64,000 nucleotides of DNA from an uncultured Clostridia bacterium (GCA_944387495.1 CALXFD010000005.1:1803-65802), one strand, 5' to 3'; positions 1 to 63,210 are shown, counted from the first letter of the stretch. Notes: generated by a model not told the origin, from the sequence alone. Translations and numbers: made by a program.

Positions 1-3000
1 TACCATCTTCCATCCCATCCATTTGTATTTAGCGCTTTTTTTAGTTTTATTTTTATTTCTTCTAATTTTTCTGAAATTTTTTGTATTCCTTCTTGTTCTT
101 CTTTTTCTTCTCGTTCCTTACATATTGGGATAAATTTGTCTATTATTTTGTACATAAAAAATCCTAACCATACACTTTCACCTTTTCCTTTATTTCCTAC
201 TGTACTAAATCCATCATTCCAATCTCCTGTTCCTATTTTTGGTAATCCATTTTCTCCAAAGTTAAAGCTTTTTTCTAATGCTTTTATACAATGTTCATAA
301 ATTGTTCCTTCTACTTTTCCTTCTTCATATTTATCGTATTTTTCTTCCTCTTCTGGTTTTAAAATTTCTCCTTCTAGATATGGTATTTTAATATCTAATA
401 TTGTTTTGTCACCTGTAAATTTTATATATTCTATTACTAAATATGGCAACCATAATAGGTCATCTGAAAATCTTGTTCTTATCCCTCTTCCTGTTTCTTC
501 ATGCCACCAATGTTCTACATCTCCTTCTATAAATTGATGTTTGCTGTGTTTTATTATTTGTTTTTTCATTGCATCTATATCAAGATATTTTATTCCTATT
601 GTGTCTTGTAATTGGTCTCTATATCCATATGCTCCACCTGATTGATAATAACCACTTTTTCCTAGTAATCTACTTTCTACTGTTTGATATGCAAGCCAAC
701 CATTTAATAATATATTTGTTGATTCTAATGGTGTATATACTTGTAATCTTCCTAGATATTCTTTCCAGTAGTTTTTTACTATATCTAACTCTTGCTTACA
801 ATTTTGTATTTTACTATATTTATATGCAATATTTTTACAGTCTATAATGCTTTCTTCTGCTCCTAAGATTAGTGATATTTCTTTGGTTGAAAAACTTTCT
901 ATTTCTACTTGCAGTTCTATTGCTATACATGAATTTCTTCCTATCGAATTTTCATTGTTTAAACTTACTTTTTCAATTCCAGCTGGATTACTTAATCCAT
1001 TCTTTCCTAAAAAGAAATTTTTATCTCCTGTATAACTTTTAATTGATTCACTTGATGATACATATACTTTTGGACTTTCTATATCATTTGTATATAGATT
1101 TTTTGCTGTAATTACATTATTGTTTCTATCATATCTTATATTTATATGATTATTACTTTTTATTTCATCTTCTCCTAGAACTGGTTTTATATAATAATAT
1201 ATTTTTAATTTTTTCCTATTTGGTGTTGTATTTTTTAGTTTTAATAACCCTATTTTACAACTATCTATTTTAGGTACAAATATTTCTAATTCTTGTTCTA
1301 CTCCTAAGCTTTTATGAATATATTTACAATATCCAAATCCATATATTATACTATAACTTTGAGAATCTGGCATTGGATTTAATCCTAATGACCATGTTTT
1401 CTTTGTTTCTTCGTCTTTTAAATATATAATTTCTGATGGTATATCATAACTTGGGTTATTTCCCCAACTTGTAATTCTGTTTAATCTACTATTTTTATAC
1501 CATGTATATCCTCCCATATTTTCTGTTAATATTGTTCCAAATTTTTCATTTGCTAGTATATGTGACCATACTGTTGGTAATCTATTATTTTGAGATATTT
1601 TTATTAAATATTCTTTTCCATCTTCTGAAAATGCTCCATATTCATTGTAATATTTTAGTTCTTCTTTATTTGCTAATATATCTATTTCATTATTTTCTTC
1701 TGGCAATATATTAGGTTCTTGTCCTTCTTTTCCTACATCTTTGTATTTGCTTATATATTCTTCTTCTAATTCTTTAATATTGTTTTCTATTCCACCTTTA
1801 CTACTATCTATAACTATCTTTGCTATAAATTCTAATAATTCTATATCTTTATTCTCTACTTCTTCTTTATTTAGTATAAATATTCCTCCATTTATATTTT
1901 TTAGATATGACATTTGATTATTTAAAATTGCACTTTCAATTTCTTCTCTTACATAATTTTCATAACTATATTTTTCTTCATCAAGTATTACTACTTCTGT
2001 TTTTATATTTTTAGTTTTAAAAAATTCATATGCTTTTAAAATTTCTTTTATACAATAAATATCATTAACATTTTGTATTTTTACTAATATTATTGGTATA
2101 TCTCCTGATATTCCATATTTCCATAAATCACTTTGTCTATATTCCCTTTTATTTAATTTTTCTGATATAACACTTTTTACTGAGTCATCAAATATAATAT
2201 ATCCTAACATTTTTTGATAGTTTTCTATATCTTTTCCTTTTATACCTAGATATCTACTTTCTGCTTCTATTCTTGCTTTTGATAGTTTAAATTCATTTTT
2301 TATATTTTCTACTGAATTAAATTTTTGTAAATTGTTTAATACTTCTTCTTTTTCTTCTCCTACTGATATTATAAAATTCATATTTATTGATTCTTGTGCT
2401 TTGATTTTTACTATTCTTTTAAGTGCTATTACAGGTTCTGTTACTAATCCAATTTTTTTAGAAAATGGTATTGAATTTTTTACCATGTTTGGTATTCCCA
2501 AGTTTCCTCTACCTATAAATTTTTCCTCTTCTATTTCATATTCTAATTCTCTTATTGTGTCATTACTATTTGAACTTATTGTTGTTGCTAAATACATTTC
2601 TGTTCCGTTTTGTTCTCTCTTTTTTCTTTTTACTATTATGCTATTTGTTTTTTCATCATAATCATATATTAAAAATAGATTATTAAATGCTGGATGTGCA
2701 TAATCTTGTTCTTTTTTTGATAGTACTGGTTCAAAATATCCTGTTACTTCTAATATTTCTTCTTCATTTCCCCTATTTTCTATTTTTATATTTCTTATTT
2801 CTACTGGGTCATTTGATGCAATTGTAGTATCTATTTTTGCTTTTATATTTCCATTAGATATTTCTTGTGATATTTTGTCTGGCATAAAACTTATTTGATA
2901 ATTATTTTCTTTTAATTCATTTTGTGAATAGTATGAACTTATTATATTTTTTGTTCTTATATTTTTTATATTAAATATTATTCCTTGATTATAATCATCT

Positions 3001-6000
3001 GTATTCTTAAATCTATTTATAAATATATCTTTGTATTTACTAATTCCAGCACCTTGCCCATTCATTGCTATAACATAGTTATTTTCATTTGATATTACAT
3101 TACTTCTAATTATTTTTTCATCTATTTTATTATATGTTTTTTCTATATAATTTTCATAATCTTTGTATTTTAATTGTTCTACTTTTTCTTTATCTTCTTT
3201 TGTTATTATTGATTTTTCTGGCATTGTTTCTTGTAATAATATTGTGGTTGCTGATATTTCTGGATTTTCTACAAATCTTTTTTGTAAAATATTATTGTTA
3301 AATAAATTATTAATAGATAATAATATTAATCCTTGATGGTGTGCCATATATGTTTCTACAACAGCTGCTTTTTTACCTTTTTCTACTCTTTCTGGTGTAA
3401 AATCGATTGATTCATAAAATCCATATTTGTCATACATTCCATATTGTTCTAATTGTTTTAAATTTTCTATTACTTCTTTTGGTCTATCTGGTAATGCAAG
3501 TATTCCTCCATATGCTGATACTACTAATTCATCTGCTAGCCCTCTTTTTAAACCTAGCCATGGTATTCCAAATGCTTTATATTGATAATTAGAATGTAAA
3601 TCTTTTAAATTAAATGCTGCTTCTGATATTCCCCATGGTAAATTTAATGTTTTTGAATATTTCATTTGGCTCATTATCATAAAGTTACATGCTTCATCTA
3701 ATAGACTTCCTTTATATTTTGGCATATTAATATTTGGCATAAGATATTCAAATGCTGTTCCAGACCATGATACTAGCCCTTTATATTTTCCTAAACTTGT
3801 TAATGTTCTGCTTAAATTATTCCAATGTTTTGATGGAACATCTTTTTTTGCAATTGCCACAAAACTTGCTTGTCTTGCTTCTGATGCTAGTAAATCATAG
3901 TAAGAATCTGTTAATTTGTTTTCTTCTACATTAAATCCTATTGAAAATATTTGATTTTTGTTATCATATAAATATGCAAAATTTGTATTTTCAATTATTC
4001 TATTAACTATTTCTAATATGTCTTTTATTTTTTCTTCTAATCTATTATCTTCTTTTAAATGTTCTTGTAAAAATGTTCTTGTAACATATAAATATCCTAT
4101 AAAGTTTCCACTATCTACTGTTGAAATATATCTTGGAATTAATGGTTCTTTTGTTTTTATATTATACCAATTATATAAATGTCCATTCCATTTTTGTAGG
4201 CTATCTACTGATTTCATGACATTATATAATAAATCTATTGTTTCATCTATTTCTATATATTTTAAATCATATGCAGAAATTATAGCTAAAATTGATAATC
4301 CAATATTTGTTGATGATGTTCTATCTACAATTTCATTTTTTCTTCCATTTTGAAAATTATCTGTAATTAAATAATTGTTTTGTGGTGTTAAATAGGTTTT
4401 AAAAAATTCCCATGTTCTTTTTCCTATTTCTAATGTATAGTCCTTTTCTTTTTTATTTAATTTTTCTAATGGTTTTTCCTCTTTTATTTCTTTACTTATA
4501 TAACACATTATTGCAGGTGAAATTAGCCATAATGCTCCTAATATTAAGCCTAAAATACTATTTCTAGATATTGAAAATATTATTGTTAATATTCCAAATG
4601 CACAATTAAACCACATTTGTGTAAAATATGAGACATAATCAATTTTAGTTCGTTTTTCTGCTTCTTCTGATGTCATCCATTCTAATAAATGTTCATGTGT
4701 TATGTTTTTTCTGTATATTGTTTTTACTATTGAAACAAATGATATATATGCCTTATTTGGTAAAACTGATAAAGTTATGAGTGCTCTTAAAAACATTCCT
4801 TTATAGCCAGAGATTTTTGGTGTAAAAGTTTTTTGGTTTTTTTCTCCCTCTTTTTTTAATATTAAATTATTTATAATTTCTAATATATATGGAAATATTG
4901 ATATTGCTAAAATTATTGATATTAAATGTCCTATTGGTGAATGTTTTATTACTCCAATTATTGATACAAATATTATTGATATAATTAGTGATATTTCTAA
5001 TAAGCTTCTTCTTAGATTATCAAATATTTTATATTTTGATAAAAAATTTAATGGATTTTTTATTTCTTTTTCTCCATTATTTATTTTATTTGTAAGCCAT
5101 TTGGTTATTTGCCAATCTCCTCTTATCCAACGTGATAGTCTGTTTGTAAAACTATTATATTTTGATGGATATCCATCCATAATTAATATATCTGTTGCTA
5201 GTCCACATCTTAGATAATTTCCTTCTAATAAATCATGGCTTAATACTGTATTTTCTGGTATTGCATTTTTTAAAACTTTTGAAAATATTTCTAAATCATA
5301 TATTCCTTTTCCTGTAAAAATTCCCTCATCAAAATTATCTTGATATATATCTGAAATTGCATTTGTATATGTGTCTATTCCTCCTGCTCCTGCAAATATT
5401 TTTGTAAATAGTGATTTATAACTTATATCTAGGTTTATTCCTATTCTAGGTTGTATAATTCCATGACCTTCTACAACTATATTTTTACTTTCATCTAATT
5501 TTGGTTTGTTTAAAATATGTGCCATTGCACCAACTAATTCAAATGCTGAATTTAAAATTAAATTAGTATCTGCATCTAATGTTATAACATATTTTATTTT
5601 TGGCAAAATGTCTTTATATTGTTCTATTGTATTTTCTTTAAATTCATTTTGAGTATGCTCTAAAATATATTCATTAAATTGGGTAATCATACCTCTTTTT
5701 CTTTCCCAACCCAAATAGCTTCCTTCTTTTTCATTCCATTCTCTTTTTCTATATATAAAATTGAATTTTGGAAATTGAGTCTTTTTACTATATTTTTCAT
5801 TTAATATTTCGCATTGCTTTTTTCCCTCTTCTATTACTTCTAAATCAAATTCTGTATTCTCTATTGTTTCTTCTGAGCAATCTCCAAGTAGAGTAAAATA
5901 TATATTTTCTGATTTATTTGCTATATAATAAATTTCTAAATCTCTCATTAATTCTTTTACTTTTTCTTTTGATTTAATTATTGTAGGTATTATTACCATA

Positions 6001-16774: not shown

Positions 16775-18265
16775 ATGTTATTAAATAAAGTACTAAAAGA
16801 CGTAGAAATTATTGAAAGCAAAGGAAATTTAGATATAGAAATTACAAATATATCTTCTGATTCAAGAATTGTAAAAAAAGATTGTTTATTTTTTGCAATA
16901 AAAGGATACTCACTAGATGGAACAAAATTTATAAATAAAGCTATTGAAAATGGAGCTACTGGAATTGTAGTTGATGAAACTACTGACATTTCTGAATTAG
17001 CTATTCCAGATAATATTACTATTGTAAAATTAAATAATATAAGACATGCACTTGCAATTTGTAGCTGTAATTTATATGATTATCCTTCACGTAAATTAAA
17101 ACTAATTGGAGTTACTGGTACAAAAGGAAAAACAACATCTACATATATGATAAAATCTATTTTAGAAAAACATGGTCTTAAAGTTGGTTTAATAGGTAGT
17201 ATTTCAATATATATAGGTGACAAAAAACTAGAAGATACTGATAGAACAACACCAGAAAGTTATAAAATACAAGAAACATTAGCTATGATGGTTAAAGAAA
17301 ATGTAGAAGTTGCTATTTTAGAAGTATCATCACAAGCTATGAAATTAGATAGAGTTACAGGTTGTGATTTCGATATTGCTCTATTTACAAATCTATCAGA
17401 AGACCATATAAGCCCAAAAGAGCATAAAGATATGGATGATTATTTTAATGCTAAACTTTCTTTACTAAAATTAGCACCAAATATTGTTGTTAATGTAGAC
17501 AATGAGTGGACTGCAAAAGTTCCTTCTTTATTGCCAGATAAACATATAACAACATTTGGTATGAAAAATAAAGCAGATATTAGTATGAAGAATATTAGAC
17601 CAAGCAACTCTTCTGTTGAGTTTACTCTTGTTATGAATGGAGAAGAAAATGATATAAAAGTATCAATACCTGGTGAATATATGGCATATAATGCATTAGG
17701 AGCTATTGCAGTTTCTTCATATTTTGATGTTACAGTTGATAATATTAAAAAAGCTTTAAATCCATTTAAAGTATTTGGAAGAAGTGAAATGGTTCCAAAT
17801 AAATTAGGTTTAACTATTATGATAGATTATGCACATACTCCATCTAGCTTAGAATCTATTCTAAAAACAGTAAAACCATATACAAAAGGTAGAGTAATTT
17901 GTACATGGGGAGTTGGTGGAGATAGAGATAGTGCTAAACGTCCTATAATGGGAGAAATCTCTGGAAATTTAGCAGATTTTACAATATTAACATCTGACCA
18001 AGTTCGTACAGAAGACCCTAGAAAAATATTAGCAGATATTGAAGTAGGTCTTAAAAAGACAAATGGAAAATATACTGTTATTCTAAATAGAACAGATGCA
18101 ATAAGATATGCTTTATCTATTGCAACAAAAGATGATATTATTGTGTTACCTGGTTTAGGTAGTGACTTATATATTGAGTATATGGGTGTTAAATACCCTT
18201 ATGATGAAAGAGTTGTAATTCATGATATTATTGAAGAAATGTTGGCTAAAAAGAAAGAGGCTTAG
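16775..18265 (+). CDS. murE: UDP-N-acetylmuramoyl-L-alanyl-D-glutamate--2,6-diaminopimelate ligase
   Basis: GVTGTKGKTTST P-loop and the DRTTPES motif; 497 aa from the ATG at 16775 (SD GAGGTGA at 16763-16769). The ORF track starts at a GTG 9 nt upstream. Confidence 0.9.
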   Translation: MLLNKVLKDVEIIESKGNLDIEITNISSDSRIVKKDCLFFAIKGYSLDGTKFINKAIENGATGIVVDETTDISELAIPDNITIVKLNNIRHALAICSCNLYDYPSRKLKLIGVTGTKGKTTSTYMIKSILEKHGLKVGLIGSISIYIGDKKLEDTDRTTPESYKIQETLAMMVKENVEVAILEVSSQAMKLDRVTGCDFDIALFTNLSEDHISPKEHKDMDDYFNAKLSLLKLAPNIVVNVDNEWTAKVPSLLPDKHITTFGMKNKADISMKNIRPSNSSVEFTLVMNGEENDIKVSIPGEYMAYNALGAIAVSSYFDVTVDNIKKALNPFKVFGRSEMVPNKLGLTIMIDYAHTPSSLESILKTVKPYTKGRVICTWGVGGDRDSAKRPIMGEISGNLADFTILTSDQVRTEDPRKILADIEVGLKKTNGKYTVILNRTDAIRYALSIATKDDIIVLPGLGSDLYIEYMGVKYPYDERVVIHDIIEEMLAKKKEA

Positions 18266-19128
18266 AGATAAGCCTTTTCTAATTCCCCATCATATACTTT
18301 TGTACTTATACCTGTCATAAATATTTCATCTGTTTCTTTATTTATTTTTATATTTAAAACTCCACCTTTTAACATCACATTTACATTTTCTCTTACATAT
18401 CCATACAAATTTGCGACTTTTGCTACACAACATGCACCAGTTCCGCACGCATATGTCTCTCCTACTCCTCTTTCCCATACTCTCATTTTTATTGTTCTTC
18501 TATCAATTACTTGTGCAAATTCTACATTTGTTTTATTTAAAAAATACTTTGAATTTTCAATAAACTTTCCTACTTTTTCTACATCTATATTGTCAATTTG
18601 GTTAGTAAAAATAACAAAATGTGGATTTCCTATCGAAATACAATTTCCAATATATTCTGTATTTTCAATATTAAATTTCAAAGTTGTAATTTTACTACTA
18701 TCTTCAACTTGCATATTAGGTGTTAATATTAATTTAGTATCTAAACTTGTTTTCCCCATATTCACTTCTACACTTTCTACTTTATTATTTTTTAAAAATA
18801 ACCTCAATTTTTTTATACCTGCCAATGTTTCAACTGTTATATTTGTTTTATCTGTCAAATTATAATCATAAACAAATTTACCAACACCTCTAATACCATT
18901 TCCACACATCTCAGCTTGACTTCCATCACTATTATATATTCTCATCTTAAAATCAGCAATTTCACTATCCTCAATTAAAATAATACCATCTGCACCTGCT
19001 CCAAAATTTCGATTACTCATATATCTTGCCAATTGTGGAATTTTACTCTCATTTACTACCTCACCATTTTTTGCACAATTTATGTATAAATAATCATTAC
19101 CTAAACCATGAATTTTTGTAAATTTCAT
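18262..19128 (-). CDS. dapF: Diaminopimelate epimerase
   Basis: MKFTKIHGLGNDYLYI, catalytic Cys motifs (EMCGNG, YACGTGA), 288 aa. Confidence 0.9.
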   Translation of the reverse strand: MKFTKIHGLGNDYLYINCAKNGEVVNESKIPQLARYMSNRNFGAGADGIILIEDSEIADFKMRIYNSDGSQAEMCGNGIRGVGKFVYDYNLTDKTNITVETLAGIKKLRLFLKNNKVESVEVNMGKTSLDTKLILTPNMQVEDSSKITTLKFNIENTEYIGNCISIGNPHFVIFTNQIDNIDVEKVGKFIENSKYFLNKTNVEFAQVIDRRTIKMRVWERGVGETYACGTGACCVAKVANLYGYVRENVNVMLKGGVLNIKINKETDEIFMTGISTKVYDGELEKAYL

Positions 19129-19175: not shown

Positions 19176-19447
19176 AAATTTTTTTGTTCAAATTAGTGGT
19201 ATTTAATAGCTGATTATATTTTATAATTTTTCATAGTATCGCCTGGAACAGAGTAAGAAATAGAATTAGTTAGGCTTTTGAATGAGGAATGTTCACGGTA
19301 CCCGAAACGTTAGTGTAGGGGGGCTGAGTGAAAGAGGCTCATGAAAAAGCCTTACTAATTCTTTTCGAACGGCAGTGACCAAGATACTATGAAAAATTAT
19401 AAAATATAATCAGCTATTAAATACCACTAATTTGAACAAAAAAATTT
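19176..19447. repeat. 272-bp palindromic element: perfect 65-bp inverted repeats (19176-19240 and 19383-19447) flanking a 142-bp relatively GC-rich core
   Basis: I verified base by base that the reverse complement of 19383-19447 equals 19176-19240. The core contains a further 18-bp stem with one mismatch (19262-19279 with 19345-19362). Confidence 0.9.
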
Positions 19448-19537: not shown

Positions 19538-20236
19538 ATGAAAATTTTTAGAAAACTATTTTTAATATTATTTATTTTATTAGCAGTAGCATTTGCAATA
19601 GTCTTTATTATCGGTTTCACATACTACTCAAAAGCTCTTGATGAAAAGCCCTTAATAACAAGAATAGATGAAGTCACAAACCAAGAACATTTTGTCACAT
19701 ATAATGAACTTTCCAAAAACTATGTAAATGCCGTTATTGCAGTTGAAGACCACAGATATTATGACCATGGAGCCATCGATTTATATGCAATTGGTAGAGC
19801 TATCTGGACCAATATTCGTTCAGGCAGTCTAGACGAAGGTGGTAGCACCATCACACAGCAAGTTGCCAAAAACATTATTTTTAACCAAGACAAAACCCTT
19901 ATAAGAAAATTAGGAGAAATATTTGCAGCATTTGACTTAGAAAAAAATTATAGTAAAGAAGAAATCTTAGCTCTATATGTTAATACTGCATATTTTGGAG
20001 AAGGTTATTATGGCATTTATGATGCTAGTATGGGATATTATAATAAAGAGCCAAAAGATTTAACAATAGATGAAGCATCTATGCTTGCAGGTGTTCCAAA
20101 TGCTCCTTCTGCATATGCCCCAACTGTTAACCCCGATTTAGCAAACAAACGCCAAAAACATGTATTAGAATGTATGGTAAAATACAATTATATTTCTCAA
20201 TCTGAGGCAGACTCGATTATCAATAATAAGAAATAA
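19538..20236 (+). CDS. Monofunctional biosynthetic peptidoglycan transglycosylase (GT51)
   Basis: N-terminal TM helix; GT51 motifs AVEDHRYYDHGAID, GGSTITQQVAKN and RKLGE. Confidence 0.85.
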   Translation: MKIFRKLFLILFILLAVAFAIVFIIGFTYYSKALDEKPLITRIDEVTNQEHFVTYNELSKNYVNAVIAVEDHRYYDHGAIDLYAIGRAIWTNIRSGSLDEGGSTITQQVAKNIIFNQDKTLIRKLGEIFAAFDLEKNYSKEEILALYVNTAYFGEGYYGIYDASMGYYNKEPKDLTIDEASMLAGVPNAPSAYAPTVNPDLANKRQKHVLECMVKYNYISQSEADSIINNKK

Positions 20237-34319: not shown

Positions 34320-34973
34320 TTAATATACTTTTGATATATATTTTTTATATAAATTTGAAATTTTTTCAATTTTTATATTTTTTTCTTCATAATCCTTTAT
34401 GAATTTAGGTTTTACTTTTTCTTCCATTTCAATTCTACATTTTATTTTTTCGCTATATTCTGTTTCTACAATATTTATTTGTTCGTTTTTACAATAATAC
34501 TTAAATTTTTCAAAATTGTTATATTCTATTTCAACTTCAAGCCCTATTCCTATTGTTTCTTCTATTTTTTTGCTTTTTTCAATTGCTTTCAATAAACTGT
34601 CTGAATATGCTCTAACTAATCCACCTGTTCCTAATAGTATTCCTCCAAAATATCTTGTTACTACTATTAAAACATTTGCTAAATTATTTGTCTTTAAAAT
34701 ATTTAGCATTGGTCCTCCTGCTGTTCCTGATGGTTCTCCATCATCACTTGCTCTTTCTATTATTTGTTCATCTTCTATAATTCTATATGCTATACAATTA
34801 TGTCTTGCATCATGATATTTTTTCTTTATTTCGCTTATTTTTTCTTCTGCTTCTTCTTTACTTTCTACTTTTATTAGGTTGGCGATAAATTTAGATTTTT
34901 TTTCAATTATTTCTGTTTCTACATTGTTTTCTATTGAATAAAATTGATTTATCATTTTTTGTAAATTCTCCAA
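34320..34973 (-). CDS. YigZ/IMPACT family protein (UPF0029)
   Basis: HNCIAYRI and DDGEPSGTAGGPML motifs. Confidence 0.8.
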   Translation of the reverse strand: MENLQKMINQFYSIENNVETEIIEKKSKFIANLIKVESKEEAEEKISEIKKKYHDARHNCIAYRIIEDEQIIERASDDGEPSGTAGGPMLNILKTNNLANVLIVVTRYFGGILLGTGGLVRAYSDSLLKAIEKSKKIEETIGIGLEVEIEYNNFEKFKYYCKNEQINIVETEYSEKIKCRIEMEEKVKPKFIKDYEEKNIKIEKISNLYKKYISKVY

Positions 34974-35065
34974 TCTATTTTTATATTTGGTATCTAATTT
35001 TTATATTTTAATAAATTACTTTATTAAAATGTTTTTATTGTTTTAACTTCTTATTTTCTACTTCT

Positions 35066-36319
35066 TTATTCCTCTAAATTTCCAGCTACAAATCCAGTAG
35101 AATATGCTATTTGTAGATTAAATCCACCTGTATAACCATCTACATCAATTATTTCTCCTGCAAAATATAATCCTGATATTATTTTTGATTGCATTGTTTT
35201 TGGATTTATTTCTTTTATGTTTATTCCACCACTTGTTATTATTGCCTCATCTATTGGTCTAAAATTTTGTATTTTTAATTCAAAATTTTTTAATAATTTT
35301 ACTATTTTTAATCTTTCTTCTTTTGTTATTTCATTTACTTTTTTATTATATTTAATTCCACTTTTTTCTAATATTACAGGTATTAATTTTTGTGGTAATA
35401 ATTTATTTAGACTATTTTTATATTCTTTATTTTTTTCTTCACTAAAATCTCTTAGTATTCTTTCATTTAGCTTTTCTTCTGTTAAAGCTGGTTTTAAGTC
35501 TATTATTAATTTTATTTTTTGCTCTTTTAATAAATTTTCAATTTCTTTATATCGTACTAAATGTGCTGATGAACTTAGGATTATTGGACCAGATACTCCA
35601 AAATGTGTAAATAGCATTTCTCCAAAATCTTCATATATATTTTTATTTTTAGATTCATCTTCTAGCCTTATTTTTACATTTTTCAAACTTAATCCTTGTA
35701 ACTGTTTACAAATATTTTTTTCATATATTTCTAATGGTACTAATGATGGTTTTATTTTTGTTACTGTATGTCCTAATTTTTTTGCTAATATATATCCATC
35801 CCCTGTTGAACCCGTTAATGGATAGCTTTTTCCTCCTGTTGCTAATATTACCTTATCAGCTTTTATTACTCCATTTTGTGTTTTCACCCCTTGTATTTCA
35901 TTGTTTTGGTTTATTATAATTTCTTGGACATTTTCATTATATTTTACATTTATTCCTAATTCTTTAATTTTTTTAGTAAAACATTTTAATACATCAAGTG
36001 ATTTATCTGTTACTGGGAACACTCTATTTCCTCTTTCTTCTTTTACATTAAGACCTTCTTTTTTTAGGAAATTTATTATATCATCATTTGTATATCTCTT
36101 AAATGCACTATATAAAAATTTGCCATTTCCAGGAATGTTTTTTATAAATTCATCAATATTTAATGATGATGTTATATTACATCTTCCTTTTCCTGTTATT
36201 AGCAATTTTTTACCTAGTTGATTATTTTTTTCTAAAATTATAACATCATGACCCTTTTCTTTTGCTGTTATTGCTGATAGCATTCCTGCTGGTCCTCCAC
36301 CTATAATGGCTACTTTCAT
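35066..36319 (-). CDS. NAD(P)/FAD-dependent oxidoreductase, HI0933/BaiN family
   Basis: MKVAIIGGGPAGM dinucleotide fold and GKGRCNITS. The true start is the ATG at 36319 (SD AAAGGATGA). The 50-aa N-terminal extension in the ORF track is read-through of the repeat array. Confidence 0.85.
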   Translation of the reverse strand: MKVAIIGGGPAGMLSAITAKEKGHDVIILEKNNQLGKKLLITGKGRCNITSSLNIDEFIKNIPGNGKFLYSAFKRYTNDDIINFLKKEGLNVKEERGNRVFPVTDKSLDVLKCFTKKIKELGINVKYNENVQEIIINQNNEIQGVKTQNGVIKADKVILATGGKSYPLTGSTGDGYILAKKLGHTVTKIKPSLVPLEIYEKNICKQLQGLSLKNVKIRLEDESKNKNIYEDFGEMLFTHFGVSGPIILSSSAHLVRYKEIENLLKEQKIKLIIDLKPALTEEKLNERILRDFSEEKNKEYKNSLNKLLPQKLIPVILEKSGIKYNKKVNEITKEERLKIVKLLKNFELKIQNFRPIDEAIITSGGINIKEINPKTMQSKIISGLYFAGEIIDVDGYTGGFNLQIAYSTGFVAGNLEE

Positions 36320-36337
36320 TTTTATATCATCCTTTCT

Positions 36338-36501
36338 GACCAATTGGGGACGTTTCTTTTTGGACATTTTTGACCATTTGGGGACGTTTCCTTTTGGACA
36401 TTTTTGACCAACTAGGGACGTTTCCTTTTGGACATTTTTGACCAAAAGGAAACGTCCCCAAATGGTCAAAAATGTCCAAAAAGAAACGTCCCCAATTGGT
36501 T
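36338..36501. repeat. Intergenic array of 34-bp units: three direct copies (36338-36371, 36372-36405, 36406-36439) followed by two inverted copies (36442-36467 truncated, 36468-36501)
   Basis: The unit is GACCA-NNN-GGGGACGTTTC(C/T)TTTTGGACATTTTT. Positions 36339-36397 are perfectly complementary to 36442-36500 (59 bp). Confidence 0.9.
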
Positions 36502-36502
36502 C

Positions 36503-37735
36503 TTAATTTTCCATACTTTCTATCGCTTTTATTACTCCATATTTTCCATATTCATATGTAAGCCCACCTTGCATATATGCTATATATGGCTCTCTCATTG
36601 GTCCATCACAACTTAGTTCTATTGTTGAACCTTCTGTAAATGTTCCTGCTGCCATTATTACTTCATCTTCATATCCTCCCATTGGACTTGGTTCTGGGAT
36701 TACACATGAATCGATTGGTGAGCCTTTTTGTATTCCTTGACAGAATTTTACTAATTTTTCACTATCTCCTAATTTTATTGTTTGTACAATATCTGCTCTA
36801 ATTTCGTCATATTTAGGTTCTACATCATATCCTAATTTTTCTAATATACAACTTGCAAATATTGCTGTTTTTACACTACTTGAAACAACTTGTGGAGCAA
36901 AAAATAGTCCTTTTAATAAATTTGTATTTTGATTTAGTGATGGTCCTATTTCTTTTCCTATACCAGGTGCTGTAAGTCTTTCTGCACATAATTTTATTAA
37001 TTTTTCTTTTCCTACTATATATGCTCCACTTGTAGCTATACCTGCTCCTAAATTTTTCATCAATGAACCAACTGCAATATCTGCTCCTACTTCTATTGGT
37101 TCTCTGTCTTGTACAAATTCTCCATAACAATTATCTACCATTATTATAACTTCTTTGTTAACTTCTCTTATCGCTTTTATTGCTTTTTCTATTTTCTCTA
37201 TTGTTAAACTTTTTCTTGTTGAATATCCTCTTGACCTTTGTATTTCTACTAGTTTTATGTCTTTTTTGGCTAATCTTTCTTTTATTTTTTCGATGTCAAA
37301 ATCATTATCTTTTAGTTCTATTTGCTCATAATTTATTCCAAATGCTTTTAATGAACTTTCGCTTTGTTCTTTTCCTACTCCTATAACTGTTTGTAAAGTA
37401 TCATATGGTGCTCCTGTTATGCTTAACATTATGTCATTTGGTCTTAATAATGCTGATAATGTTACTGCTAGTGCATGTGTACCTGATATAAATTGTGCAC
37501 GTACTAAACTATCTTCTGCTTTAAATATTTTTGCATATATTTCTTCTATTTTATTTCTTCCTGGCTCATCTATACCATATCCTGTTGATGAGGTTAAGTG
37601 CACTTCTTGTAAATTACATTCTTGAAATGCTTCTATTACCTTTATGCTATTTTTTTCGCATATTTCTTCTATTACTTTAAATTGTGGTTGTATTTTTTCT
37701 TCTACTTCTTTTATTAATTCTTTACTTATTTTCAT
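36503..37735 (-). CDS. YnbB-like PLP-dependent protein (Met_gamma_lyase / aluminium-resistance family)
   Basis: 410 aa. The N-terminal pattern ...SSTGYGIDEPGRNKIEEIYAKIFKAEDSLVR is typical of YnbB-type proteins. Confidence 0.75.
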   Translation of the reverse strand: MKISKELIKEVEEKIQPQFKVIEEICEKNSIKVIEAFQECNLQEVHLTSSTGYGIDEPGRNKIEEIYAKIFKAEDSLVRAQFISGTHALAVTLSALLRPNDIMLSITGAPYDTLQTVIGVGKEQSESSLKAFGINYEQIELKDNDFDIEKIKERLAKKDIKLVEIQRSRGYSTRKSLTIEKIEKAIKAIREVNKEVIIMVDNCYGEFVQDREPIEVGADIAVGSLMKNLGAGIATSGAYIVGKEKLIKLCAERLTAPGIGKEIGPSLNQNTNLLKGLFFAPQVVSSSVKTAIFASCILEKLGYDVEPKYDEIRADIVQTIKLGDSEKLVKFCQGIQKGSPIDSCVIPEPSPMGGYEDEVIMAAGTFTEGSTIELSCDGPMREPYIAYMQGGLTYEYGKYGVIKAIESMEN

Positions 37736-37805
37736 ATTTTTTGTTCCTCTTTTCGTTATAATCTTTATATATTTTACTATAAATTTCTATTTTTTTCAAT
37801 ATTGA

Positions 37806-37834
37806 TTGTATTTTATGTTAATTTTTGATATAAT
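37806..37834 (+). promoter_or_regulatory. Sigma-A-type promoter with extended -10 for the orphan gene
   Basis: TTGTAT (37806-37811), 17-bp spacer, TGaTATAAT (-10 at 37829-37834). Confidence 0.45.
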
Positions 37835-37879
37835 ATCATTGTAACTGTAAATTCAGATTCAATATTTAAGGAGGGCTTT

Positions 37880-38605
37880 ATGAAGCTAAAAGAATTTAAA
37901 GTTCAATTTGAGCGGTCTATTGGAGATTTCGCAGAGGTATTCAATTACCTAAATGTCTTAGAAGAATTGGGAATGTATGTTGACCTTAAGATTATCTACA
38001 AATCTTCTGGTTATCGTCTAAATGTGAATCTATATAATTCGCTCGAAGCTTTATTCCCTATTTTGTCTTTTAAAACAAGGATATTACCATTAGAAGATGA
38101 TATTTTGGATTTTATTCAAAATACCAATATGCTTAAAGCATATTTATCATTTTCACTTGATGGTGAAAATCTAAAAGTCAGTGTATATGATAAAGTTTCG
38201 ACAGACACGAGTGTTTCTTATGAACTCGATAATGTAGAAACCAAATTCAGTATACTTTCGTTTAATGTTCTTGTTCAAAAAGAATATAAAGATATGGTAG
38301 AATATCTTATTCCATTGCTCAATCGTTATTCAACGGATTGTTTGTTACGGCAGCGTTACGAAAATGTTATTGAAATCATTTTTGACAAAAACAATTGTCG
38401 TTTAAAAGTAATGTTACCTACAAATGATTCGAAGGTTGTACAGTATTTCATTTCAAAGTTTAATGCTTTACAATCTATAATAACTAATCCAAAAATTAAA
38501 TTTTCATCATTAGCACATAAAAAAACTGTTTTTTTGAAAATAGCAGTATTTGCTAATGATGAAACTGAGCAAAAGACTGCTCTTTCTACCATAAGATTTA
38601 TGTAA
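37880..38605 (+). CDS. Hypothetical protein (241 aa) with no recognisable family and atypical composition
   Basis: SD AAGGAGGG upstream of the ATG. Its codons (CGG, CGT, TCG, GAC, CTC) are rare in neighbouring genes. Possible four-fold internal repeat ending in (L/R)(K/N)V-x-(L/V) strands. Confidence 0.7.
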   Translation: MKLKEFKVQFERSIGDFAEVFNYLNVLEELGMYVDLKIIYKSSGYRLNVNLYNSLEALFPILSFKTRILPLEDDILDFIQNTNMLKAYLSFSLDGENLKVSVYDKVSTDTSVSYELDNVETKFSILSFNVLVQKEYKDMVEYLIPLLNRYSTDCLLRQRYENVIEIIFDKNNCRLKVMLPTNDSKVVQYFISKFNALQSIITNPKIKFSSLAHKKTVFLKIAVFANDETEQKTALSTIRFM

Positions 38606-59771: not shown

Positions 59772-59899
59772 TTTCTTTTATAGATTTTAAATCTATATTC
59801 TCCTTGAATATATTTGAGTTTTTAAAAGGTTACTCATAAACCTTATTTATCCTTTTTTAAAAAAGAAAATTATTTTATAAATAATTTTCTCTTTTATTT

Positions 59900-60403
59900 T
59901 TATTCAATATATCCTATATATGGTAAGTTTCTATATTTTTGATTATAGTCTAAACCATAACCTACAACAAATTTATCTTCTACTTCAAATCCCATATAGT
60001 CTGCTTCAATTTCTACTACTCTTCTTGATGGTTTTGATAATAGTGTTGCTATTTTTACACTATTTGGATTTTTTGCTTCTAAATATTTTTTTAGTTCTTT
60101 AAGTGTTCTTCCTGTATCTATTATATCTTCTATTATCAATACATCTTTTCCTTCTATATCTTCTTTTAGAGCTTTTTTTATTTTAAGATTTCCTGTGCTT
60201 TCTGTTCCTTCATAACTTGAAACTTCCATAAAGTCAAATTTGACTTTCATTTTTAATTTTTTTGCTAATTCTACCATAAAAACAATTGAACCTTTTAATA
60301 TTCCAAGTAGGATTAATTCTTTTCCTTCATATTCTTTATTTATTTCTTTTGCTAGTTCATTTATTCTTTTTTCTATTTTACTTTCACTTATTAGTACTTC
60401 CAT
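59900..60403 (-). CDS. hpt: Hypoxanthine(-guanine) phosphoribosyltransferase
   Basis: PRPP motif VLIIEDIIDTGRT, flexible-loop motif VSSYEGTESTG, and FVVGYGLDY. Confidence 0.9.
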   Translation of the reverse strand: MEVLISESKIEKRINELAKEINKEYEGKELILLGILKGSIVFMVELAKKLKMKVKFDFMEVSSYEGTESTGNLKIKKALKEDIEGKDVLIIEDIIDTGRTLKELKKYLEAKNPNSVKIATLLSKPSRRVVEIEADYMGFEVEDKFVVGYGLDYNQKYRNLPYIGYIE

Positions 60404-60460
60404 TTTTTATTTGTGATAATAATTATCACTTTCCTCCTTTTTTTGTTTATTAGCTATTTT

Positions 60461-60958
60461 TTAAAATTCTTCTATACTTCCTACATATGGTAGATTTCTA
60501 TATAATTGTTTATAATCCATTCCATAACCTAATACAAATTGGTCATGTATTCCAAATCCTATGTATTTAACATTTAGTTCTTCTATTTTTCTTGATGGCT
60601 TAGCTAATAATGTTGCTATTTCTAAACTTTTTGGTTCTAAATTTTCTAAATGTTGTTTTAAAAATGTTATTGTTTTTCCTGTGTCTATTATATCTTCAAC
60701 AATTAGTACGTTTTTTCCCTCTACTACGCTTTTTAAGTCTTTGCTTACTTTTCCGTTATTTTCTTCATCAAATTCTATATCTACAAATTCAAAGCTTACA
60801 TCTATTTTTAATTTTTTAGCTAAATCTACTAAAAATACAACTGAACCTTTTAATACTCCTAGTAAAACTAATTCTTCTCCTTCATAGTCACTATTTATCT
60901 CTTTTGCTAGTTCATTTACTCTTTTTTCTATTCTTGCTTCATTTATTAATACGTTCAT
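60461..60958 (-). CDS. Divergent hypoxanthine phosphoribosyltransferase paralog
   Basis: PRPP motif VLIVEDIIDTGKT and FVLGYGMDY are retained, but the SSY flexible-loop motif is replaced by IEFDEENNGKVS. Confidence 0.8.
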   Translation of the reverse strand: MNVLINEARIEKRVNELAKEINSDYEGEELVLLGVLKGSVVFLVDLAKKLKIDVSFEFVDIEFDEENNGKVSKDLKSVVEGKNVLIVEDIIDTGKTITFLKQHLENLEPKSLEIATLLAKPSRKIEELNVKYIGFGIHDQFVLGYGMDYKQLYRNLPYVGSIEEF

Positions 60959-61173
60959 TTTTTCCCCTCTCGAAATTTTATTATGTATTGATTATATCTT
61001 ATTTTGTTTCTTATATCAAGCTTTATTTTTGTTGCTTTATTAAAAAGTTTAAGAAGATTTTTTAACGTATTTTTAATTTTTTATTAGGACTTGCTTATTT
61101 TTTAATTTTATTATAATATAATACAGTATATTAATGCATGCAGAATTAGATGAAAGGAGTAAAAAAACAAACT

Positions 61174-61335
61174 AGCGCCAGGACACTTAGTTCTAAACAA
61201 GTGTTGACGAGGTTCAGGGTTATCGAAAAATTCGGCGGATGCCTTGATGGCTTACTTATAGTCATTAGTATTAAACAAAAAGTTGTAATATACAATAACA
61301 AAAATTAATACACATAAGTTAAATGCATGCCTTAA
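61174..61335 (+). ncRNA. glmS glucosamine-6-phosphate-activated ribozyme in the glmS leader
   Basis: AGCGCCAGGAC...GACGAGG...TTATCGAAAAATTCGGCGGATGCC matches the conserved glmS ribozyme core immediately upstream of glmS. The 3' boundary is approximate. Confidence 0.85.
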
Positions 61336-61371
61336 ATTCCAAAAACAAAATATTAATTAGGAGGAATGATT

Positions 61372-63210
61372 ATGTGTGGAATTGTAGGTTATATAGGATA
61401 TCAAAAAGCAAGTCCAATTTTAATTAATGGTCTTATAAGACTAGAATACAGAGGATATGACTCAGCAGGGATTTCAACTATTGAATCTGATGGGTTATCT
61501 ATTATGAAAGATAAAGGTAGAGTTAGAAATTTATATGATTTAGATGGAATAGATGATTTGAAAGGTACTATTGGTATTGCACATACTAGATGGGCAACTC
61601 ATGGTAAACCTTCAAAAGAAAATTCTCATCCACATCAAGATAATTCTAAAACATTTAGCGTTGTTCATAATGGTATTATTGAAAATTATAATGAACTAAA
61701 AAAATTCTTAATAGAAAATGGTTATAAGTTTTATTCTGATACAGATACTGAAACTATACCAAATTTAATTCATTATTATTATATGAAAAATAAAAATACA
61801 GGTATTCAAAGATTTCTAGAAGCTGTTAGAAATGCATGTGCAGATTTAAAAGGTAGTTATGCTCTTGAAATTATTTGTAAAGATTATCCAGATAATATGA
61901 TAGTAACAAGAAAAGATAGTCCACTTGTAATTGGTAAAGGAAATGGAGAAAATTATATTTCTTCTGATATTCCAGCTATACTTTCTTTTACAAGAGATTT
62001 TTATTTGTTAAATGATTTTGAAATTGTTCTTCTTTCAAGAGATGAAGCTAAATTCTATGATATGGATTTAAATAATATTGATAAGAAAACAAAAACAATT
62101 GAATGGGATGCTACAAGCAGTGAAAAAAATGGTTTTGATGATTTCATGCTTAAAGAAATTTATGAACAACCTACTGCTATTAGAGAAACTATTGGTTCTA
62201 AATTTAGTGAAAATTCTAAATGTGAATTTGAAGAATTAAATTTTGATAAAGACTTTTTATCAAATATCAAAAGAATTTATATAGTAGCTTGTGGTACTGC
62301 TATGCATGCTGGTTTAGCTGGTAAAAATGCAATTGAAAAACTTTGCAGAATTCCTACTGAGGTAGATATTGCATCTGAATTTAGATATAGAGAGCCATTA
62401 ATTGATGATAAAACATTATGTATTTTTATTTCTCAATCTGGGGAAACAGCAGATACTATTGCTGCATTAAAACTTTCTAAATCACATGGTGCAAAAACTC
62501 TTGCTATTAGTAATGTTATAGGAAGTTCAATTACAAGAGAAGCAGATTATTGTTTATATACACATGCAGGTCCAGAAATAGCAGTTGCATCAACAAAAGC
62601 ATATACTTCACAAGTAATTTTATTAGTAATACTTGCTATATATTTTGCTGAGATATTAGAAATTAATACAGAAAAAGTTAATTCTCTTAAAAAAGAAATT
62701 TTAACATTACCTAAAAAAATAGAAGAAACATTAAAATCTTCTTCACAAATAGAAGATTTTGCTAAAAAAGTATATCAAGAAAAAGACATTTTCTTCTTAG
62801 GTAGAGGTGTTGATGAAAATGTTGCAAAAGAAGGTTCTTTGAAATTAAAAGAAATTTCATATATTCATTCAGAAAGCTATGCTGCTGGTGAATTAAAACA
62901 TGGACCTATTGCATTAATTGAAAAAGATGTAACTGTTATTGGTATAATGACAGATGAAAAATTAGTTGAAAAAACTGTTAGCAATTTACAAGAAGTAATA
63001 ACTCGTGGTGCTAAAACTTTAATTATAACAAATCAAAAAATTGATGAATCTATGTTTGATATGGTTATAAATATACCTAAAATAGATTGTTTTGTATCAC
63101 CAATATTATCTATTATACCTTTACAATTATTTTCTTATTACATTGCAAAGGAAAAAGGATTAGATGTTGATAAACCTCGTAATCTTGCAAAATCTGTAAC
63201 AGTTGAATAG
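61372..63210 (+). CDS. glmS: Glutamine--fructose-6-phosphate aminotransferase
   Basis: N-terminal MCGIVGY (catalytic Cys after Met), SIS domains, C-terminal KSVTVE. ATG at 61372, 7 nt after AGGAGG. Confidence 0.95.
   Translation: MCGIVGYIGYQKASPILINGLIRLEYRGYDSAGISTIESDGLSIMKDKGRVRNLYDLDGIDDLKGTIGIAHTRWATHGKPSKENSHPHQDNSKTFSVVHNGIIENYNELKKFLIENGYKFYSDTDTETIPNLIHYYYMKNKNTGIQRFLEAVRNACADLKGSYALEIICKDYPDNMIVTRKDSPLVIGKGNGENYISSDIPAILSFTRDFYLLNDFEIVLLSRDEAKFYDMDLNNIDKKTKTIEWDATSSEKNGFDDFMLKEIYEQPTAIRETIGSKFSENSKCEFEELNFDKDFLSNIKRIYIVACGTAMHAGLAGKNAIEKLCRIPTEVDIASEFRYREPLIDDKTLCIFISQSGETADTIAALKLSKSHGAKTLAISNVIGSSITREADYCLYTHAGPEIAVASTKAYTSQVILLVILAIYFAEILEINTEKVNSLKKEILTLPKKIEETLKSSSQIEDFAKKVYQEKDIFFLGRGVDENVAKEGSLKLKEISYIHSESYAAGELKHGPIALIEKDVTVIGIMTDEKLVEKTVSNLQEVITRGAKTLIITNQKIDESMFDMVINIPKIDCFVSPILSIIPLQLFSYYIAKEKGLDVDKPRNLAKSVTVE

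Follow-up and report, generated by a model that had tools for sequence, protein, structure and literature searches.

A probable cluster of repetitive extragenic palindromes between ynbB and a flavoprotein gene in an uncultured Clostridia bacterium

The array between ynbB and the flavoprotein gene

A 64,000-nt stretch of DNA from an uncultured Clostridia bacterium (GCA_944387495.1, CALXFD010000005.1:1803-65802; hereafter the window) contained a 164-bp array at 36338-36501, in which three direct 34-bp units were followed by a truncated inverted unit and a full inverted unit. The array lay between a ynbB-like gene and a flavoprotein gene and is described here as a probable cluster of repetitive extragenic palindromes (REPs). 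The features of the locus were as follows.

37771..37799 (-), promoter-like site upstream of ynbB, TTGAAA-17-TAAAAT; relatives share a conserved TATAGTAAAAT box at this position
36503-37735 (-), ynbB-like gene, encoding a YnbB-like pyridoxal phosphate (PLP) enzyme (Pfam Met_gamma_lyase PF06838, E 8e-170)
36468..36501 (-), inverted copy of unit 1, starting AACC, not GACC
36440..36467 (-), inverted copy of unit 2, truncated to 28 nt, reading GACCATTTGGGGACGTTTCCTTTTGGTC on its own strand
36406..36439 (+), unit 3, GACCAACTAGGGACGTTTCCTTTTGGACATTTTT, which makes up the greater part of the large palindrome's 44-nt loop
36372..36405 (+), unit 2, GACCATTTGGGGACGTTTCCTTTTGGACATTTTT
36338..36371 (+), unit 1, GACCAATTGGGGACGTTTCTTTTTGGACATTTTT (nhmmer E 4.5e-10)
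36442..36500 (no strand), right palindrome arm, 59 bp, perfect
36339..36397 (no strand), left palindrome arm, 59 bp, perfect
~36331-36337 (-), ribosome-binding site GAAAGGA of the flavoprotein gene, abutting the array
35066-36319 (-), flavoprotein gene of the HI0933-like / aminoacetone-oxidase family (TIGR00275, E 3e-146), with its ATG at 36319

The array started 1 nt past the ynbB stop codon and ended at the ribosome-binding site of the flavoprotein gene, which was followed by YigZ and Spo0A. A preliminary description of this DNA had placed it in the gap between two co-directional genes; this was right, with the correction that both genes are on the minus strand and that the array runs from 1 nt past the ynbB stop to GAAAGGA. 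Tandem Repeats Finder reported a period of 34, 3.3 copies and 92% matches. Four unit matches were observed in the window against none in 100 shuffles, and GGGACGTTTCC, with one mismatch allowed, was found five times against 0.02 expected by shuffling.

The direct units differed from one another by 2-4 changes, while each inverted unit matched its own partner, the inverted copy of unit 1 differing from it by a single, outermost base. The truncated inverted unit (36440-36467) had self-complementary ends, GACCA/TGGTC. Sequence 36339-36397 was the exact reverse complement of 36442-36500 (59 nt, 0 mismatches) and the pairing could not be extended either way. An alternative register paired 36373-36434 with 36439-36500 at 56 of 62 positions. 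The units contained 13, 14, 14, 14 (of 28) and 12 G+C, in flanking DNA of 24% G+C and a window of 25.6% G+C. The number, coordinates and sequences of the three direct and two inverted units, the 59-bp perfect palindrome, the alternative register bringing unit 3 against the inverted unit 2, and the relative G+C richness of the units (12-14 per unit against the 24% of the flanks) thus all agreed with the preliminary description. The array was not of the CRISPR type, its units being contiguous and partly inverted, with no unique spacers.

The sole good promoter-like site of the region was that upstream of ynbB, and no terminator-like site was found in a scan of 34900-38100. Because of this, ynbB and the flavoprotein gene are probably carried on one transcript reading through the array, with the site at 37771..37799 (-) as its probable promoter. 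On the transcribed strand, the sequence 3' of the hairpin read AGAAAGGAUG, and neither a U-tract nor a terminator-like site was detected, in line with the earlier statement that the array is not a standard terminator. The minus-strand transcript of the array folded at -117.8 kcal/mol, compared with -43.7 +/- 4.3 for shuffled sequences (z -17), and the array DNA strand folded at -80 kcal/mol as one long hairpin. A search of Rfam 15 with the array reached no family's gathering score. At an E-value threshold the only models returned, for either strand, were those of eukaryotic microRNA (miRNA) precursors, with scores well short of the cut-offs, as any long hairpin would generically give. The open reading frame (ORF) extensions that the array produced on both strands had already been called spurious, and were judged so here; in annotation of these metagenome-assembled genomes (MAGs), such spacers are best labelled as REP clusters.

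The repeat family and its associated transposase gene

A 20-nt core of the unit, GGGACGTTTCYTTTTGGACA, had exact matches in at least 118 stretches of ~32 assemblies (one genome per species scanned). The listed MAGs bearing it, very AT-rich and derived from gut samples (mouse, chicken, goat and others), carried the labels uncultured Clostridia, Clostridium, Eubacteriales or Bacillota, and within single MAGs exact core matches fell in at least 15 separate 8-kb blocks. The possibility, left in the preliminary description, that the 34-bp unit occurred nowhere else was thus plainly contradicted by its presence in relatives. The core would make a convenient clade-specific marker.

A profile of the unit detected 178 copies in 886 kb of core-bearing loci. 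Crude gene calling assigned 79% of this DNA to genes; on that basis 155 of the 178 (87%) were intergenic, against ~21% of non-coding DNA; 11 were partly intergenic and 12 lay within called ORFs, several of these ORFs probably having miscalled starts. Where a cluster edge faced a stop codon, it was within 10 nt of the stop in 51 of 117 cases. The distribution of copies across co-directional, convergent and divergent spacers equalled the background, and single units showed no bias with respect to transcription (39 in the same and 48 in the opposite orientation). A strand-specific RNA role for the family was considered and rejected, there being no bias of orientation or of gene-orientation class. 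Among 34 close neighbour pairs, 26 were head-to-head and 6 direct; the only tail-to-tail cases were two overlapping double hits.

The family consensus was TGTCCAWTTGG-GGACGTTT-CCTTTTGGACA followed by a short T-run, an imperfect palindrome of ~30 nt. The usual full element in relatives was TGTCCAWTTGGGGACGTTTCYTTTTGGACA-TTTTGTCCATTTTGGGACACATCT; copies in the window held the first module only, and had GACCA where the family has GTCCA. The consensus unit TGTCCAATTGGGGACGTTTCCTTTTGGACA folded as DNA at -5.8 kcal/mol (z -2.8). GACG was present in the centre of the unit only, and the recurrent motif of the family was GGGAC. A metagenome scan for the GACCA variant used a loose pattern (15 specified bases), so that most of what it picked up in contigs from soil and sediment was due to chance; three of four low-G+C matches (L182, L191 and L208; L numbers designate loci in other assemblies) carried related units. 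Plasmid, phage and IMG/VR collections searched with the array or the core gave no match, so a plasmid or phage origin was unsupported. Another dispersed palindromic repeat, GATG(N)TTTTTGCTCCGTCCCCAAAA(N)CATC, often adjoined the REP units (L019, L022, L098, L105) and may be a further family or a terminator-like hairpin.

The same genomes contained a second family, TTGCCA..GGGACGGWCC..TGGCAA, with 45 copies in 23 loci and a fold of -5.4 kcal/mol. Its arrays consisted of three contiguous units, with a 33-34-nt period and mixed orientation such as + - - and + + -. Examples were found at L002:5094-5211, L010:730-830, L083:2970-3070 and L074:5690-5780, of which L010 and L083 look like one locus in two species, with a three-unit array in each. 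A third arm type, ACCAG/CTGGT round a GGGGACGTTTCC core, was seen in a few AT-rich metagenome contigs. The arms covaried among the types (GTCCA/TGGAC, TGCCA/TGGCA and ACCAG/CTGGT); left and right arms change together, the pattern expected of selection for the stem.

At the loci of two relatives, L053 and L023, inverted copies of the unit enclosed an ORF of 264-266 aa. The L053 gene (4333-5133) was bracketed by a perfect 54-nt inverted repeat built of units (4171-4224 and 5144-5197), and in L023 it lay on the minus strand (775-1569) between units at 713-745 (+) and 1689-1722 (-). Two further RAYT orthologues also had inverted flanking units, which were of the GGGACGTTTCC type in the species designated P0027 and had a different core, GGGGACAGGTCC, in that designated P0045. 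The two proteins scored 62.5 and 57.4 bits with Pfam Y1_Tnp (cut-off 23), and their best NCBIfam model was REP_Tyr_transpos, the REP-associated tyrosine transposase (RAYT), at 73.9 and 65.6 bits. The L023 and L053 RAYTs were 63% identical. An alignment of 17 RAYTs showed the HUH histidines H63 and H65 (NHVHL) and the catalytic Y122 (RYIHQNP) to be invariant, and a helix-turn-helix-like C-terminal segment to be conserved.

A single-sequence search of the PDB with the RAYT found nothing. In a sequence profile search of the PDB, the only match in which the HUH and Tyr motifs were aligned was 4ER8, the E. coli TnpA-REP (E 0.02). An AlphaFold model of the RAYT (mean predicted local distance difference test score, pLDDT, 84.3) had 4ER8 as its top Foldseek match (E 7.5e-7, target-normalised TM-score (TMt) 0.69, root-mean-square deviation (rmsd) 2.6 A), ranked above the IS608, ISDra2 and IS200 transposases (ranks 2-28).

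The gene order small conserved protein, RAYT, radA, disA was constant in four species, a pattern that would fit a vertically inherited gene at a fixed chromosomal position. Homologues of the RAYT at E <= 1e-10 numbered 2,577, one of which had been named RayT by the Joint Genome Institute (JGI). Many of them were found only on contigs of ~0.9-1.3 kb, about the length of the gene and its flanks, as would be expected if REPs on both sides regularly broke short-read assemblies. A palindrome, AAAGTATAGCA-(N)-TGCTATACTTT, was conserved ~60-100 nt upstream of every RAYT gene examined, between the left REP and the start codon (L053:4225-4332, L023:1570-1688, L125 and L135:1330-1500); it could be a promoter, an operator or a further hairpin recognised by the enzyme.

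Origin of the array and alternative explanations

The ynbB-flavoprotein gene pair was conserved among relatives and the spacer was not. The spacers compared were as follows.

Window: spacer 183 nt, five first-family units
L275 (YnbB 89% identical to that of the window): 16 nt, ribosome-binding site only
L276 (YnbB 87%): 41 nt, without repeat
L266/L267 (YnbB 86%): 53 nt, without repeat
L272/L273 (YnbB 82%): 53 / 39 nt, without repeat
L270/L271 (Clostridium sp. CAG:575, the nearest named relative by YnbB; YnbB 83%): 79 / 80 nt, without repeat
L268/L269 (YnbB 87%): 142 nt of AT-rich DNA, without repeat
L265 (YnbB 87%): 161 nt, another inverted repeat, its core being GGGGACGGACTC
L002 (~79% nucleotide identity): 118 nt, three second-family units, one forward and two inverted

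In the closest relatives the spacers were thus of 16 to 53 nt and repeat-free. The absence of the array from orthologous spacers indicated that it was an insertion specific to the lineage of the window, and three repeat types have colonised the spacer independently. No target-site duplication was found at the ends of the array, where the flanks were TCCTTTCT and CTTAATTT; its absence fits Y1 transposition. In the spacer of L265 (2436-2597), the inverted repeat GGGAAATCGGGGACGGACTCATTTTTCCCTTTTT ... AAAAAGGGAAAAATGAGTCCGTCCCCGATTTCCC was apparently nested in first-family remnants (TGTTCAATTGGTGAGACG ... CCCCACTATTTGGACA), which suggests repeated insertion into existing REPs.

The array is very probably a five-unit REP cluster, similar to bacterial interspersed mosaic elements (BIMEs) and to REPINs (REP doublets forming hairpins), of a family spread by, or co-evolving with, a domesticated Y1/HUH RAYT acting on single-stranded DNA, in very AT-rich uncultured gut Clostridia. 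Among the roles listed in the preliminary description, that of a REP/BIME-like repetitive extragenic palindrome was the one upheld, by the dispersed intergenic family and by its flanking of a RAYT gene in relatives. From its distribution, the array would be selfish mobile DNA lodged in an operon, not a dedicated regulatory site.

Several observations weigh against this reading. The units of the window alone folded weakly (-1.0 kcal/mol, z 0.3) and were hybrid, a GACCA left arm mismatching a TGGACA right arm. The ends of the unit, and those of the 54-nt composite, bore neither a GT(A/G)G head nor a CGTC tag. Beyond the five units of the array, the unit profile matched nothing in the 64 kb; the window also held no RAYT gene, the flanking of such a gene being seen in relatives only, and the RAYT score fell just below the curated NCBIfam cut-off (73.9 vs 80 bits). 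Canonical BIMEs alternate in orientation and have linkers, whereas the units of the window, although regularly spaced at 34 bp, were arranged + + + - - and linker-free. The array is thus BIME-like as a REP cluster, not in its detailed grammar.

If the array is a REP cluster, a REP or REP doublet would have entered a 16-50 nt spacer separating the ynbB stop from the flavoprotein gene's ribosome-binding site. The RAYT would have cut and joined single strands at a replication fork, leaving no target duplication. By analogy with IS200/IS605 and TnpA-REP (PMC3479197, PMC2817692), the RAYT would recognise the folded single-stranded unit, cut alongside it and rejoin it elsewhere during replication. 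The array could then have grown by slippage with a 34-bp period and by fold-back (inverted) duplication. Fold-back duplication would account for arms of 59 bp that are identical while the direct units differ; probably the palindrome arose recently, when two units were duplicated by fold-back, or else hairpin-templated repair has preserved the identity of its arms.

By analogy with E. coli REPs, a transcript hairpin of ~-118 kcal/mol directly after the ynbB stop could shield the ynbB mRNA from 3' exonucleases, be cleaved by RNase III, or reduce both read-through and the expression of the gene downstream. Such a local effect on the mRNA is possible, but would be a by-product and not the reason why the array or the family exists. 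With the insertion, two genes that used to be tightly coupled have come to be separated by a very stable hairpin, a natural experiment on REPs and operon expression.

A different explanation would make the array a cis-regulatory RNA (an mRNA stabiliser, RNase III site or read-through attenuator) selected and kept for its function. Its position inside a probable operon, reaching from the stop codon to the next ribosome-binding site, the stability of its transcript hairpin (-117.8 kcal/mol, z -17) and the occurrence of some palindromic array in this spacer in three lineages are consistent with such a role. However, the spacers of the closest relatives (16 to 53 nt) were unstructured, the three filled sites held three different repeat families, the family was unbiased in orientation (39 vs 48) and at background in its gene-orientation classes, and the unit of the array also flanks a transposase gene. 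A dedicated regulatory RNA was considered improbable, because the array is absent in the closest relatives and the family shows no strand bias.

Short-read assembly of a palindromic repeat could also have produced the array as an artefact, or at least the precise number of its units and the orientation of its loop. An identical YnbB protein was encoded on 11 contigs, of which two (L119 and L120) spanned the spacer, both having it identical to that of the window. Four further contigs of the same strain terminated within the array, so that four of six contigs with identical ynbB stopped inside it, and one of these, L122, ended in a variant junction, GGACAAAA; the 59-bp arms would, moreover, exceed the usual k-mers of metagenome assembly. 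On the other hand, L120 came from a different sample and was 99.8% identical to the window over 5 kb, the 183-nt spacer was identical in two assemblies from different samples, on long contigs with conserved gene order, and the point changes among the three direct units let the units be ordered. An artefact was held to be very unlikely, because two independent assemblies were identical. The array is real and is also an assembly breakpoint, contig breaks at such sites being repeat-induced; the orientation of the 44-nt loop between perfect 59-bp arms would not be guaranteed by short-read assemblies.

It is just as hard to credit that the units are operator or iteron sites for a duplex-binding protein that regulates the adjacent genes or a replicon, as the preliminary description had also suggested. 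The 34-bp spacing is regular, the quasi-palindromic core is centred on ACGT, and the helix-turn-helix-like C-terminal region of the RAYT could bind duplex DNA. Yet in dozens of genomes the genes next to the copies were unrelated, the array had no replication or regulator gene as a neighbour, the covariation of the arms keeps a hairpin and not a fixed duplex sequence, and the array was missing from orthologous spacers. The unrelated neighbours, arm covariation and empty orthologous spacers spoke against this suggestion. [quoted passage not shown]

Known REP systems and other features of the window

The REP/BIME elements of E. coli and their TnpA-REP (YafM; 4ER8) have been described (Nunvar 2010, PMC2817692; Messing 2012, PMC3479197). 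Like these, the Clostridia repeats were short imperfect palindromes, extragenic, clustered and often in inverted pairs, with inverted REPs flanking a transposase gene and copies directly past stop codons within operons. They differed in being AT-rich with a GGGAC motif, without the GT(A/G)G head, and in a contiguous 34-bp period without linker motifs, ordered + + + - - and not alternating. The modelled Clostridia RAYT has a predicted Y1/HUH fold with TnpA-REP as its closest structural match; unlike TnpA-REP, it is ~100 residues longer, with a helix-turn-helix-like C-terminal region, and it belongs to a Gram-positive, anaerobic host.

The Pseudomonas REPINs (Bertels and Rainey 2011, PMC3116915, PMC3337134) were matched in the predominance of head-to-head doublets forming a long hairpin (26 pairs), in there being several REP families per genome and in the synteny of the RAYT in four species, which would fit single-copy vertical inheritance. 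Unlike in REPINs, the spacers between REPs ranged from 0 to ~230 nt, the array of the window exceeded a doublet, and the sequence family and host phylum were other ones. Group 1 RAYTs (TnpA-Y1 subclass 2.1) are chromosomal and are the only RAYT group reported also in Clostridia; their flanking 16-mers are reported to be of low abundance (~12 per replicon), with some behaviour like that of insertion sequences (ISs) (Bertels 2017, PMC5581495; PMC6006769). The Clostridia host and chromosomal location are points of likeness to this group, to which the present proteins may belong, whereas the flanking repeat here was common (at least 15 separate 8-kb blocks with exact core matches in single MAGs).

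The GTAG- and CGTC-tagged REP superfamilies were described in a text without mention of Firmicutes or Clostridia (Di Nocera 2013, PMC3733652). They resemble the present family as stem-loop repeats, mostly head-to-head dimers, between co-directional genes, but the latter has no terminal tag and its GACG is central only. With the IS200/IS605 elements (IS608, ISDra2), the system would share, from the model, the Y1/HUH fold, recognition of subterminal DNA hairpins and lack of target duplication. Those elements are, however, autonomous and multi-copy with distinct left and right ends, whereas here the RAYT position was fixed across four species and the short repeats far outnumbered the gene. Judged from these sequence comparisons, the Clostridia system is in mechanism and anatomy a REP-RAYT system.

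No description of REP families in Clostridia or Firmicutes was found in the literature consulted, where Clostridia were mentioned only in passing, for Group 1 RAYTs. We propose, tentatively and with some reserve, that the repeats and the RAYT belong to an undescribed Gram-positive REP/REPIN-RAYT system, with multi-family GGGAC-type palindromes descending vertically in a gut Clostridia clade and a RAYT with an extra helix-turn-helix domain fixed beside radA/disA. If true, the REPIN-RAYT model of an "intragenomic replicator" would hold outside Proteobacteria as well, there with a head motif other than GTAG. REP-RAYT systems have been characterised almost entirely in Proteobacteria, and the Clostridia clade offers an independent test of ideas on REPIN persistence and RAYT domestication.

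A second palindrome, at 19176-19447, had been named beside the array in the preliminary description; the two shared no sequence motif, look like different kinds of feature and are unrelated. This element consisted of 65-nt perfect inverted arms (19176-19240 and 19383-19447) around a G+C-richer core of 142 nt, and had as neighbours a dapF-like gene, divergent (18262-19128, -), on one side and an ORF (19538-20236, +) on the other. It had no Rfam match at E <= 1. Its core was 75% identical over 108 nt to L075:1028-1128, from a goat MAG, where a long inverted repeat likewise surrounded the counterpart although its arms differed in sequence, indicating that the structure was conserved and the arm sequence was not. 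The element may encode a non-coding RNA of long-rod shape, or the segment may be invertible.

Elsewhere in the window, two adjacent diverged copies (72-79% identical) of a ~560-bp segment were found at 59892-60963, probably a tandem pair of paralogous genes. From position 1 to ~7400 (-), no complete ORF of at least 150 aa was listed before 6917, and this region is probably one very large gene running off the start of the window. An ordinary glmS ribozyme (RF00234, 85.7 bits) was located at 61163-61321 (+), upstream of the glmS gene at 61366-63210.

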